From IMG/VR virus record IMGVR_UViG_2657244940_000016: DNA of 5,786 nucleotides; one strand, 5' to 3'. Each line of letters opens with the position of its first letter. Positions within the stretch are counted from its first letter, which is position 1. The stretch comes from a virus (Duplodnaviria > Heunggongvirae > Uroviricota > Caudoviricetes). Positions 3,001-5,786 of this stretch are shown piece by piece. Made by a program: the position numbers.

Positions 3001-5786
3001 AAGGGTGGTGTCCGTCACCCTGTGGGTGATGGTCCGGATATGTGTCTGCACCTGACAGAGGTCATCCAGATCATCGTCCCGTCGTACCATATCCCGGGCA
3101 GGGTTGAAGGCGTTGGCCGCCACCTCCACAGTCGGGGCCAGAATCGTGTAACCCGCCGCCTGCCGCCAGTTCAGTAACAGTGCAGTCATCATGATCCCGG
3201 CAGCCAGCGTGGACTTCGAGTTTTTCTTGGGGATAAGGATAAACACTTCCTTGATATGGCGAACACCGGTCTGCGCATCGTAGGAGCCAAACAGGGCCGC
3301 CACCAGGTCAAACACCCACGGTGCACAGGACTCCCCGAATGTCGGGCTACCCGGTGCATCCACAATTCGCAGTTGTTTAAAAATCGCCAGGGCATGTGCG
3401 GCCTCGTCCGGATAAATCGGATCCGGAATAATCGACAGCCCCTTTTTCAGGCGCTCTGCCCAGTCCGGGCAGGCTGTGCTCCATACAGGTATCATCCGTT
3501 GCCCTCATTATCGTTATTCACCACCAGTCGGGGTGGCGGTGGCACCGCAAAACGGTTAGCCGCTTTTTTCGCGGCATCACCTTTTGCCGATTTTTTCCCG
3601 GTATCCCCTTTTTTATGGTGCGTGAACTGCGCCAGACGCCAGGCCGCATCCAGTGCCAGTTTCGGATCAATGCAGAGGTTTTCCACCAGGATCCGCCCCA
3701 TGGCTTTCACCGGATCGGGAAGACCATCCTCCATATATTCAATACCAGGAGACATCACCGCGGACGGTGGCATCTCCGGATTGTTTTCGTCCGGCTGTGG
3801 TATTGCAGCCGCCTCACGACGACGGGGTTTATCCTCCTGCTCTGATTTTTTCTGCCGGTAAACAGGAACCTCATCCACCTCCACCGTCTCGCATTGTTTA
3901 CGGGCTATAAACGCAAGCACCTCCGGATCTTTTGCCAGCTGCGAGCCTTTAACCCTGGCGGTCTTCGCCGAATAACCGGCGGCAATGGCTGACGCTGTTT
4001 TGTTTTTCCCGGACATGAGCGCCAGCGCAAATTTTCGTTTTTGCGTTGTCAGCACAGCCTCCTCCCGGGTCCAGAACGCACTCAGCCGGGTATGGTTCAG
4101 CCCATTTTTCCCGGCGTCTCATGCCGCAAATGTTAACTGCTGCCTGGTTAACATTTTCTGAAAAAGCCAGTTAACATTTTTTTCGCGCAACTAAATGAAT
4201 AATAAAGATAAAAACCGCAAAAATGCCCGGACGGCCAGTTAACATGTTAACTGGCCTGAAACGGGAATTTTTTCTCTGCGTGAGAGGGGGCGCGGTGTCC
4301 AAAGCGATCGTTTTTTACGCCGGATGATCCCCCCCCCCGGGTCGGGTTACAGTCCGATGATGTCGTCCGCTCTGCCACTACCTCCGGACACCTCCGGCAG
4401 CGTCGGGTCCGGCATACCACCCGCCGCTTCACGAGCAGACTTTTGTCGATGGCATTCGGTACAGAGCGTCCAGAGATTCGTCTCCTCATTACCACCACCG
4501 AACTGAAGTGCAATTCGGTGATCGAGTTCACTGTCACAGAGGTCAACCACACGACCACAGATACAGCACTGCCCGGCGTCCCTCAGCCAGATATGACGCT
4601 TGAGGGAAACACGTGCACTGCCACTGACACGACGCTGCTCCCCCTTCAGAATATTCACCCGTCGGGTATTCAGTGTTTTGATTCTGCTCTGGAGTGTACG
4701 AAGCTGAGCCATGTAAAATCCCCGTCATATGGCAATCAGTAAAGGAAATAAATATGTCATCGAAAAACCGGACCCGCAGAACCACAACCCGCAATATCCG
4801 TTTCCCCAATCACATGATTGAACAGATCAGCATCGCCCTTGAGCATAAAGGGTCCGGTAACTTTTCAGCGTGGGTTATTGAAGCCTGCAGGAGAAGGCTG
4901 GCAACAGATGCAACGCATCTGCGCCCGGCCAGCATGAAAAATAACGAGAAATGAACGTTCGGTTACAGGAGCAGGTACCCACTGTCCTCCAACAATATTT
5001 CATCTTCATATCCGACGGAACAAGACTTACCCTGCCGGGATGTACAGAATAACAACAGAGTGATAATTAATTTCTGATGAAATAATCAGGGTGCAGAAGG
5101 ACTAAAGATAAACGTTTTCTTCACGCCTTTACACGGCCTGTCCTTCTCAAATCGCCATTTTGCCATCGCCTTTACAACCTGCTCATCAAACAAATGGTGC
5201 GGCTCTGAACGGATAAACTCAATTCGGGTGACAGTACCATCAGCACCAATATCAAACTTCACATCAACCCGTCCCTTTATATAATTTGCCGCTGCATAGG
5301 CCGGATATTGTGGTAATGCCTTAACCAACTGTCGGGGCATATCTGTTTTATGTTGCGTACAGCCCATAACCAGAGAAGACAACAAAATAATTAACGGAAG
5401 ATTTCTTTTCATTTTCATTCCCGGCACAGATAAGAATAAGTCTTATTCTAACAATGCCACCCTGTCGGTCATCAATCCTCTGTTTAATGGCAACGACAAT
5501 TATCCGACTTAAATCACAAATCAGACACATGACATAACAGAGCTTGCGAGGTAACACATCGTCCGGTTTCTTCCACCATCGCACCGGACCAGCGACCATG
5601 AGGGGACAACGCCGCGCTCCGTTAACGCGGTAAACCCCGGTGTGTATCGTTTTTGATTATCCCCGCACACTCGCGCAGAGGAGTCTCCCGGTCGGGCTGC
5701 GGTCTCTGTTAATGCAGGAATACGGCGACAATACCGCGCATGGATAATAAGGTCGCTCAACACACTGGCTGTAATGCAGCGGATAC

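Follow-up and report, generated by a model that had tools for sequence, protein, structure and literature searches.

A conserved YlcI/YnfO (DUF3950) family gene antisense to the late operon of a decayed lambda-like prophage, a candidate ribbon-helix-helix regulator

Beside the packaging genes of a decayed lambda-like prophage lies a small gene on the strand opposite to the late operon, and its presence there raises the question of what it does. We analyzed it in a stretch of 5,786 nt (IMG/VR record IMGVR_UViG_2657244940_000016), referred to here as the window. Three functions had been weighed in the initial annotation, those of a regulator, a packaging or cos-binding accessory and an antitoxin, and the first is the one that our analyses support best. 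We think that the gene probably encodes a small dimeric ribbon-helix-helix (RHH; Arc/Mnt/CopG-like) protein of the YlcI/YnfO type that acts as a sequence-specific transcriptional regulator; its regulatory function, the timing of its expression and its target are proposed by analogy.

A conserved gene of the YlcI/YnfO family

The plus-strand ORF is a real and strongly conserved gene. Running from the ATG at 4754 to a TGA that ends at 4954, it encodes the 66-aa protein MSSKNRTRRTTTRNIRFPNHMIEQISIALEHKGSGNFSAWVIEACRRRLATDATHLRPASMKNNEK (Table 1), and its coordinates, Shine-Dalgarno sequence, homology and dN/dS ratio all agree with the gene as initially drawn. The longest mechanical ORF begins upstream, at a GTG at 4694, and would give 86 aa; this start, named beforehand as one that would speak against the proposed gene, is unlikely to be used. 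We place the start at the ATG because homology to the lambda, DLP12 and Qin copies starts there at both the DNA and the protein level, because M-S/A-T/S-K is the N-terminus of most of the aligned family proteins, and because PGAP annotates this 201-nt gene in E. coli G6/7, in addition to the Shine-Dalgarno sequence. The gene is also annotated in phage JLK-2012.

The gene is under purifying selection. Over codons 1-50 the window and lambda alleles show 23 synonymous and 6 non-synonymous differences (dN/dS ~0.03), with 6 of ~116 non-synonymous sites changed and a dS of ~1.7, which is near saturation. The combination of near-saturated synonymous sites and few non-synonymous changes indicates that selection is acting on the protein rather than on the DNA sequence. 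The gene has stayed intact although terL of the prophage is frameshifted and the capsid gene truncated, just as ylcI and ynfO have in DLP12 and Qin, both of them cryptic prophages.

The protein belongs to the YlcI/YnfO (DUF3950) family, as had been proposed, passing the cut-offs of both Pfam DUF3950 (68.5 bits, cut-off 25) and NCBIfam YlcI_YnfO_N (NF041551; 35.3 bits, cut-off 30); it also matches phrog_949 (E = 3e-32). K-12 YlcI (DLP12), YnfO (Qin) and the identical 64-aa lambda ORF are members of the same Pfam/NCBIfam family. In an alignment of 32 sequences, all invariant or near-invariant columns of the core (I/V)RF...I...NFSAWV.(E/D)AC are present in the window protein, and the family maintains 35-50% protein identity across Enterobacterales. 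Residues 1-52 are 86.5% identical between the window and lambda-type proteins, including an identical predicted strand TRNIRFP, whereas neither the C-terminal tail nor the upstream DNA of the window is related to that of the lambda/K-12 copies. The tails of the window, lambda/DLP12 and Qin alleles are unlike one another, and the tail recombines separately from the core. A tblastn match in a Pasteurella phage lay on the strand opposite to an annotated gene, and we took it as spurious. The annotation itself is already known: exactly the same protein is present on 586 public contigs under the name "YlcI/YnfO family protein", and this current RefSeq name is correct and needs no change. We found no functional study of YlcI, YnfO or DUF3950 in the literature, where they are mentioned in mutation tables and gene lists.

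Table 1. Coordinates of the gene and of associated features in the window.
Feature	Position	Strand	Remarks
YlcI/YnfO (DUF3950) family gene	4754..4954	+	66 codons; stop codon included; from ORF and translation
Shine-Dalgarno sequence AAGGA	4742..4746	+	7 nt before the ATG; read off the sequence
Candidate -10 hexamer TAAAAT	4714..4719	+	without a good -35; predicted from sequence only
Candidate operator half-site GTATTCAGTG	4666..4675		within HNH coding sequence, 79-88 nt before the ATG; post hoc lead
Conserved core, residues 12-50	4787..4903	+	predicted strand TRNIRFP, helix A NHMIEQISIALEH, G-S-G-N-F-S turn, helix B AWVIEACRRRL
Variable C-terminal tail ATDATHLRPASMKNNEK	4904..4951	+	differs between alleles

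Position, neighbours and expression signals

The late operon of the window is transcribed from the minus strand and comprises the antiterminator, the lysis genes, a TonB-like gene, HNH, terS, terL and the capsid gene, and the YlcI/YnfO family gene is antisense to it, on the strand opposite to every neighbouring late gene. The HNH start codon lies at 4712 on the minus strand, which leaves the 41 bp between divergent start codons that had been reported. However, the view that HNH-terS-terL form a separate divergent operon with its promoter in 4713-4753 did not hold, as these genes continue the minus-strand late operon and the gap contains just the two ribosome-binding sites. The gene occupies the last position before the packaging module, opposite in strand to the late operon, and the same is true of K-12 ylcI and ynfO. 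In lambda the slot is filled by a 64-codon ORF (48109-48303, complement) ~200 bp from cos. This ORF is absent from the lambda RefSeq annotation, so that a strongly conserved small gene at the right end of lambda, beside cos and in an intensively studied place, is missing from the reference record.

What lies across the divergent gap differs between phages. In the window it is an HNH endonuclease gene followed by a Terminase_2-type terS, whereas in lambda, DLP12 and Qin the divergent neighbour is a Nu1-type terS ~390 bp off, across cos; the initial observation that YlcI and YnfO sit beside Nu1-like terminase genes thus holds for DLP12 and Qin. Among viral loci in which the upstream neighbour is present, this neighbour is HNH-terS in 72 and Nu1-type terS in 4. 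On the downstream side, the only co-directional ORF in the window is one of 33 aa (4951-5052, ATGA overlap). Across related loci its protein varies freely, with an unrelated peptide in 29 loci and loss of the ATG in 4, and we therefore ruled it out as a hidden partner, in keeping with the earlier statement that no toxin-like partner ORF follows. The description of the gene as solo is correct for the window, which unlike the K-12/lambda-type loci has no DUF1398 gene nearby, but not for Qin-type loci, where a DUF1398 gene (ydfO) lies 42-57 bp downstream on the same strand. No known RNA families were found within the window.

As the gene is opposite in strand to the Q-dependent late operon, it should have its own promoter, independent of late transcription. 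A scan against the promoter consensus returned a single weak site (9/12, at 4624-4652), and scanning near the gene revealed neither a confident promoter nor a terminator. For K-12, RNA-seq compilations suggest that ylcI is transcribed, and they list it with ybcW as a convergent transcript overlap that is present in 50% or more of the samples (PMC12288877). With regard to a possible operator, the post hoc motif GTATTMAKTG has a single match in the window (versus a hit in 3 of 200 shuffles) and a single match, in the same place, in the 23 kb of JLK-2012. Lambda has two copies, both at most 100 nt upstream of the homolog, which form inverted repeats, and none of 200 shuffles reached two. The flanks of the window and lambda genes have one 11-mer in common, which is not significant by itself and serves as a lead only. 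No repeat-type operator array was found beside the window gene.

The question of a ribbon-helix-helix fold

The succession of a strand, helix A, a G-x-S/T/N turn and helix B within ~45 residues, which had suggested an RHH protein at the outset, can be read from the sequence. In the AF2 model the helices span residues 19-32 and 37-54, residues 14-18 lie in no helix, and confidence is low across the C-terminal tail; the predicted strand could pair only within a dimer. The segment RNIRFPNHMIEQISIALEHKGSGNFSAWVIEAC aligns without gaps to FNLRWPREVLDLVRKVAEENGRSVNSEIYQRVM of Arc, placing N14 and R16 over Arc N11 and R13, which we take to be base-contacting residues in the Arc-operator structure. 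Using hhalign against a hand-made alignment of Arc, Mnt, CopG, ParD, NikR, FitA, RelB and CcdA sequences, the strand and helix A were placed in the Arc register with P = 0.007-0.018, but with a probability of only 2.6-5%. Several RHH proteins, e.g., ParD, NikR and YiiF, are included in a Foldseek list of non-significant matches. A Pfam search at E ≤ 1 yielded DUF3950 alone and no RHH family, so that of the two Pfam families named for the check, DUF3950 and RHH_1, only the former was matched; PDB sequence and profile searches gave no match. Thus, the Pfam, hhalign and PDB searches detected no significant sequence or profile homology to any RHH family. The strand and two helices of the original proposal stand, structure comparison supports the proposal weakly, and we consider an RHH fold likely.

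RHH proteins are obligate intertwined dimers, and among them Arc and Mnt of P22 are small regulators set in the phage late region with divergent gene orientation. Arc, Mnt (both from the phage P22 immI region) and CopG are like the window protein in size and can be written with it in a common gapless register of N-x-R strand, hydrophobic helix A, G-x-S/N turn and helix B, although the sequence-profile relationship is without significance. Unlike the Arc/Mnt system, the window gene has no adjoining antirepressor gene, and its operator is a candidate only.

Regulation and the alternatives

The options for function are narrowed by four features: a likely RHH protein, a gene directed against the late operon, no co-variation with cos type, and kin in the control regions of satellites. 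The distant homologs are found in satellites, islands and chromosomal sites, without packaging genes alongside. In Gram-negative PICI and helper-embedded satellites (integrase, AlpA, Bro/AntA, DUF4222, primase), DUF3950 genes 36-55% identical to that of the window are also placed on the opposite strand and diverge from the element's main downstream operon, which in integrase-AlpA-primase satellites is the replication operon; the DUF3950 gene goes unmentioned in the paper that describes these satellites. Upstream of the satellite homolog, a stretch of 200 nt contains an 11-17-nt repeat, often palindromic, in 2-4 copies; 23-26 bp separate copies 1 and 2, and a further copy follows the -10 region and precedes the start codon. 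In two satellites (L050 and L064) a predicted leftward promoter, TTGACG-N18, has one copy within its spacer, and (C)GTCAA, which is TTGAC(G) in reverse complement, occurs at -51 to -89 in 14 of 20 loci. The repeat GTGYAYAWACAC is common to elements with the strand STTKGIRFP in Serratia, Brenneria, Xenorhabdus and one further locus (L007), and other strand sequences pair with other repeats, a link between strand and repeat that is confounded by shared ancestry. Alternatively, the repeats could be bound by AlpA, a Bro-type protein or the primase. An Rfam search of eight satellite loci returned nothing above the gathering score except one tRNA, and hence no P4 CI/C4/isrK-type immunity RNA was detected in them. 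The window gene differs from its satellite relatives in lacking their clear repeat arrays and predicted promoters, and its strand residues (TRNIRFPN in phage copies) differ from the KGIRFPH, KNIRFED and others of satellites.

We draw the regulator analogy because the satellite homologs are oriented divergently from the replication operon and lie among operator-like repeats that change with the strand residues. The gene would then fill a fixed lambdoid slot opposite the Q-dependent late operon, and its product, probably made in the lysogen, would probably be an autorepressor with a phage or host target. A plausible role is to keep the adjacent HNH and terminase genes silent in the prophage, where repression may be combined with convergent transcription against read-through from upstream genes expressed in lysogeny. 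If the protein does guard the terminase/HNH genes in lysogens, or mediates an interplay between helpers and satellites as considered below, it would add usefully to lambdoid biology.

An orphan RHH antitoxin, or the remnant of a two-gene module made of the RHH protein and the DUF1398 protein YdfO/YbcV, would be compatible with the same-strand DUF1398 gene of Qin-type loci and with a weak PHROG match to a HicB-like family (E = 0.028). We regard this as very improbable, since the lack of a conserved co-directional partner ORF argues against an antitoxin: the next gene at the window locus is on the other strand, and lambda and DLP12 carry an oppositely oriented gene between the RHH and DUF1398 genes. 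RHH antitoxins contact their toxins through the C-terminal tail, which is short and variable here, and unlike TacA1/TacA2, CopA-SO and Rv0298 (7zg6, 7ak7, 6iya, 8u12), to which it is 10-22% identical, the window protein has neither a toxin gene nor a conserved C-terminal toxin-binding extension. PADLOC defence-system models matched neither the RHH protein nor YdfO nor the fusions described below. Least probable of all is that the locus acts mainly in cis, with its conserved 150-bp core either serving as a recombination linker between the lysis/moron and packaging modules or giving rise to antisense transcripts, the protein being secondary. One might expect as much from homology that runs from the ATG to near codon 50 amid unrelated flanks, from recombinant alleles that are joined inside the gene, and from the ybcW-ylcI transcript overlap (PMC12288877), but the near-saturated synonymous sites and the persistence of the family at the protein level across Enterobacterales place selection on the protein.

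The possibility that the protein is a packaging accessory, binding near cos or to terminase/HNH and modulating cos recognition or cleavage, is suggested by the constant proximity of the gene to the packaging module (72 HNH-terS and 4 Nu1-type terS loci, as well as K-12 and lambda). The CAGTTAACAT repeats that had been named as a possible target do exist, as five GTTAACAT/ATGTTAAC copies in 4130-4251. However, no GTTAACAT repeat was found in the lambda cos region although the lambda protein has the same reading strand, and we rejected these repeats as the RHH target. TRNIRFP is unchanged in lambda and in recombinant alleles adjoining Nu1-type terS, so that the putative DNA-reading surface does not co-vary with cos/terS type. 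A near-identical N-terminal half beside two unrelated cos systems, with recombination joints inside the gene that exchange the packaging side, argues against a cos-binding role. The gene is also not co-transcribed with the packaging genes because it is antisense to the late operon, the distant homologs have no packaging genes adjoining them, and lambda packaging needs no more in cis than small cos fragments. The packaging role proposed initially is therefore unsupported, and we consider it unlikely. A further reminder of packaging comes from satellites, in which DUF3950 and the DNA-binding HTH of a Terminase_2 small subunit occur fused in one protein. The fusion recurs across 4-5 clusters of proteins, with identity as low as 48%, its HTH is 60% identical to the N-terminus of the window TerS, and one fusion-bearing satellite sits within terL of an HNH-terS prophage; in these proteins the TerS HTH, rather than the RHH, is the obvious packaging-related part. 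The Rpp proteins of E. coli PICIs, which redirect packaging via a TerS-like DNA-binding domain joined to a dimerisation module (PMC6739421), are a further pointer to packaging and resemble two of the fusions (P0196 and P0217). Rpp, however, consists of a Nu1-like winged HTH and a coiled coil without an RHH, and the window protein is without a TerS-like domain. Listeria TerI, a small, antisense, lysogeny-expressed packaging inhibitor, was set aside as an analogue, being unrelated in sequence and location. A different role in the relations of helpers and satellites, which we likewise hold to be improbable, is that the phage copy is the helper counterpart of the satellite DUF3950 regulators and occupies their operators or forms mixed dimers with them, conceivable given that RHH proteins are obligate dimers. 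There is also a small chance that it thereby holds parasitic satellites silent or is itself sensed by them. The family is common to lambdoid helpers and satellites, including satellites in terL of HNH-terS prophages like that of the window, and the gene is retained in defective prophages; against this, the strand residues of the phage copies are unlike those of all satellite copies examined and we found no satellite repeat motif in the window. It is equally doubtful that a YlcI-type protein takes part in a helper-satellite conflict in which the fused form ties satellite DNA to the HNH/Terminase_2 packaging machine of the helper, although, if true, this reading would assign a role to the conserved gene that lies 200 bp from lambda cos.

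Gene identity and prophage setting

The window gene is a real, correctly identified and already annotated member of its family. The frame proposed in the initial annotation, from ATG 4754 to a stop ending at 4954, yielded the same 66-aa protein, with AAGGA upstream at a proper distance, and its DUF3950 and YlcI/YnfO assignment was confirmed by Pfam DUF3950 (68.5 bits, cut-off 25) and NCBIfam YlcI_YnfO_N (35.3 bits, cut-off 30). The protein also matched phrog_949 (E = 3e-32), a family of unknown function. PGAP calls exactly the same gene in E. coli G6/7 and phage JLK-2012, and the identical protein appears under the family name on 586 public contigs. 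A longer frame from GTG 4694, considered earlier as the possible true ORF, was rejected because homology with the alleles of lambda and of the K-12 cryptic prophages DLP12 and Qin begins only at the ATG, as do most aligned family proteins. Over codons 1-50, the window and lambda alleles differ by 23 synonymous and 6 non-synonymous changes, hence a dN/dS of about 0.03, which points to a protein under strong purifying selection; that the locus is a purely cis-acting element is highly improbable.

Nucleotides 431-5786 come from a lambdoid prophage of the phage 2851/JLK-2012 (Marienburgvirus) type, which is frequent among Stx-converting phages, and make up its packaging end. Their identity to E. 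coli G6/7 is 98%, and at least 80% of the window is present in 1112 of 5426 complete E. coli genomes. All late genes are carried by the minus strand. The prophage is defective: relative to phage JLK-2012, a 1-bp deletion in a C-run near 2081 frameshifts the large terminase, the same gene being flagged 'frameshifted' in G6/7, and the capsid gene breaks off at 431, the junction with lepB and kps capsule gene fragments. The ribbon-helix-helix (RHH) gene is intact despite these defects.

The left end (1-430) is a patchwork, with the prophage starting abruptly at 431 inside the protease-capsid gene, and at least 80% of nucleotides 1-700 was held by none of the complete E. coli genomes searched. The TonB_C-domain gene, with the lysis genes on one side and the RHH gene on the other, encodes 113 aa with a signal/lipobox-like N-terminus (Pfam TonB_C, E = 1.4e-14). 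It is probably a moron, and the PHROGs name of its family, 'Rz-like spanin', looks like a mislabel.

Features of the window and of the loci compared (L-numbers)
Feature	Location	Strand	Remark
TonB_C-domain gene	5086-5427	minus	first in late-gene order
HNH endonuclease	4347-4712	minus	after TonB_C-domain gene, then repeat-rich gap
terS, Terminase_2-type	3492-4055	minus	after repeat-rich gap
terL	2068-3495 and 1835-2032	minus	frameshifted, indel near 2081
Protease-capsid fusion	cut at 431	minus	last in late-gene order
lepB 5' end	about 346-430
E. coli kps capsule-biosynthesis gene match	1-345
Recombinant alleles	L162, L163, L167 5001-5201; L166 1125-1325		beside Nu1-type terS and lambda-like upstream DNA
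Qin-type RHH-DUF1398 arrangement	L004 6757-7458 (Qin); also L008, L038, L042
Satellite DUF3950-TerS-HTH fusion genes	L007 4714-5103; L169 9001-9429; L170 777-1148
Operator-like repeat arrays	L050, L052, L055, L064, L066, L072, L074, L075, L078, L081		in the 200 nt upstream of the DUF3950 gene

The gene had been described as divergent from an HNH-terS-terL operon, with a promoter region at 4713-4753. Instead, the antiterminator and lysis genes open a late operon of which HNH-terS-terL is the continuation. The RHH gene is placed on the opposite strand, flanked by HNH and the last lysis-side gene. The 41 bp between the two start codons are filled by two ribosome-binding sites, with no room for promoters, and a consensus scan near the RHH gene returned weak promoter-like sites only and no terminator. 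The same slot and strand are occupied by ylcI in DLP12, by ynfO in Qin and, about 200 bp left of cosN, by a 64-codon ORF of lambda (48109-48303, complement; 3110-3304 in the lambda locus L005). The product of this ORF is identical to K-12 YlcI; it is absent from the NC_001416 feature table and annotated in newer lambda-like records.

DNA similarity between the window and lambda-type alleles is confined to about codons 1-50, the upstream DNA and C-terminal tail being unrelated. Among viral contigs with alleles at least 94% identical and an upstream neighbour present, this neighbour was HNH in 72 and a Nu1-type terS in 4, and all four of the latter encode a recombinant protein with a lambda-like N-half and a window-like tail. 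These recombinants show that the gene core serves as a point of crossover for the packaging and lysis-side modules.

The lambda allele (87% identity with the window protein over residues 1-52) was also seen near contig ends in L010-L037 and in many ENA proteins, under organism labels that include Kitasatospora, Cohnella, Pseudomonas, Flavobacterium, a spider and S. aureus. Most such contigs are of 3.5 kb or 48.5 kb, and the observations suggest that these copies are lambda control DNA. Frameshifted copies of this kind make the family look larger and more diverse than it is.

Predicted fold

P22 Arc repressor aligns without gaps to the core of the protein, with NIRFP on NLRWP followed by hydrophobic helix A, and the turn G-S-G-N-F-S on Arc G-R-S-V-N-S followed by helix B. 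Arc N11 and R13, which contact bases in the Arc-operator structure, align to N14 and R16 of the window protein. An AlphaFold2 monomer (16-sequence alignment, pLDDT 65) has helices at 19-32 and 37-54, with residues 14-18 non-helical. The same Arc register was recovered by hhalign against a small hand-made RHH alignment with a probability of only 2.6-5%, Foldseek gave no significant match for the window protein (its non-significant list includes the RHH proteins ParD, NikR and YiiF), and sequence and profile searches tied the family to no solved structure. The strand and helix order on which the RHH reading was based agrees with Arc and with the two predicted helices; the Pfam search suggested alongside it linked the protein to no RHH family. 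We therefore consider an RHH fold quite likely, although not proven.

Candidate functions of the phage protein

The best-supported reading, which we hold to be moderately probable, is that the gene encodes a small transcriptional regulator of the RHH type and is expressed independently, in the direction opposite to the late operon; of the roles put forward initially, this is the one with the best support. Such a regulator would plausibly silence the HNH and terminase genes during lysogeny, when it would be damaging for the prophage to have its own cos site cleaved. Upstream of the lambda gene there are inverted copies CGTATTAATTGAT / CGTCATAATTGAT, and a third copy, CGTATTCAGTG, lies 11-22 nt before the ATG. 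The degenerate core motif GTATTMAKTG, defined post hoc after the data had been seen, has two matches in the last 3.5 kb of lambda, both lying in the 100 nt upstream of the gene (no shuffle out of 200 had as many). The window has one match, at 4666-4675, 79-88 nt upstream of the ATG and within the HNH coding sequence (a match arose in 3 of 200 shuffles), and the single match in 23 kb of JLK-2012 is in the same place. We regard this motif as a candidate target of the phage protein, and as a lead only. A literature search found no functional study of the YlcI/YnfO family. In one compilation, ybcW-ylcI is a convergent transcript overlap in 50% or more of the K-12 RNA-seq samples (PMC12288877), which suggests that ylcI is transcribed from the uninduced cryptic prophage.

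Alternatively, the protein may be a packaging or cos-binding accessory, as had also been proposed. Five copies of GTTAACAT/ATGTTAAC are located at 4130-4251, between HNH and terS, in a repeat region (4128-4256) that includes a perfect 24-bp palindrome, GGCCAGTTAACA|TGTTAACTGGCC, at 4233-4256 and probably serves this HNH-dependent packaging system for cos/terS recognition. However, these repeats have no counterpart in the lambda cos region, the predicted DNA-reading strand is identical beside two unrelated packaging systems, and the packaging genes run in the other direction from the gene, so that we find this role unlikely. The packaging link of DUF3950 exists in satellites only. There, DUF3950 is fused to the HTH of the Terminase_2 small subunit in four protein clusters (P0196, P0214, P0215 and P0217; both Pfam cut-offs were passed by the two checked, P0196 and P0217), and a fifth cluster, P0216, has a different RHH-like head. 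The fusion HTH and the N-terminus of the window TerS share 60% identity, and the L169 satellite interrupts terL in an HNH-terS prophage, with tail genes directly following. The fusions recall PICI Rpp proteins, which redirect helper packaging via a TerS-like domain (PMC6739421). Packaging falls naturally to the TerS-like part of the fusions, and dimerisation and site binding are the likelier contribution of the RHH part. That the phage protein is itself a factor in helper-satellite cross-talk seems doubtful, about as much so as the accessory role.

An orphan antitoxin is very unlikely. In Qin-type loci a DUF1398 gene (ydfO) does follow the RHH gene on the same strand, 42-57 bp downstream, but in lambda and DLP12 an oppositely oriented gene separates the two, the C-terminal tail is variable, and PADLOC matched neither the RHH protein nor YdfO. 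The sole co-directional downstream ORF in the window (33 aa, ATGA overlap) is not conserved, in agreement with the earlier remark that no toxin-like partner follows. The database protein P0167 is an in-frame YnfO-YdfO fusion, and a YnfO-YdfO two-gene module is possible.

Distant relatives and satellites

The family is narrow: among 1.8 billion representatives it forms 98 clusters at 50% identity, and many of those are copies of lambda control DNA that contain errors. Members that are truly divergent (35-55% identity) were found in Serratia, Klebsiella, Enterobacter, Xenorhabdus, Pectobacterium, Brenneria, Pantoea, Tatumella, Salmonella and others. Of the 40 divergent loci examined, at least 16 are small integrative elements that encode a P4-type integrase; most of these also carry AlpA, often together with DUF4222 and an AntA/Bro-type protein, followed by a primase. 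Gram-negative PICIs and helper-embedded satellites have been described with the same layout (bioRxiv 10.1101/2022.07.18.500453), in a study that does not mention the DUF3950 gene.

In the satellites, the DUF3950 gene stands alone on the opposite strand, diverging from a small-ORF/primase operon, and the 200 nt upstream contain 2-4 copies of an 11-17-nt, often palindromic, repeat, copies 1 and 2 being 23-26 bp apart. One copy falls in the spacer of a predicted leftward TTGACG-N18 promoter in L050 and L064, 14 of 20 loci have (C)GTCAA (the reverse complement of TTGAC(G)) between -51 and -89, and a further repeat copy lies between the DUF3950 gene's own -10 region and start codon. The strand STTKGIRFP goes with the repeat GTGYAYAWACAC even beside differing neighbour genes, and other strand sequences pair with other repeats, a correlation that is confounded by shared ancestry. 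This picture is what an autoregulated divergent repressor would look like; alternatively, the repeats could be bound by another protein.

A GC-rich hairpin was seen in the leader of the leftward (primase) operon in most satellite loci compared; an Rfam search of eight satellite loci gave no P4 CI/C4/isrK-type RNA family at gathering score. In Salmonella enterica subsp. diarizonae and arizonae (L047, L048), a 56-aa family member is flanked by genes for a SopB/SigD-like effector and a PipD-like dipeptidase, an SPI-5-like context in which identities were judged by eye from the sequences.
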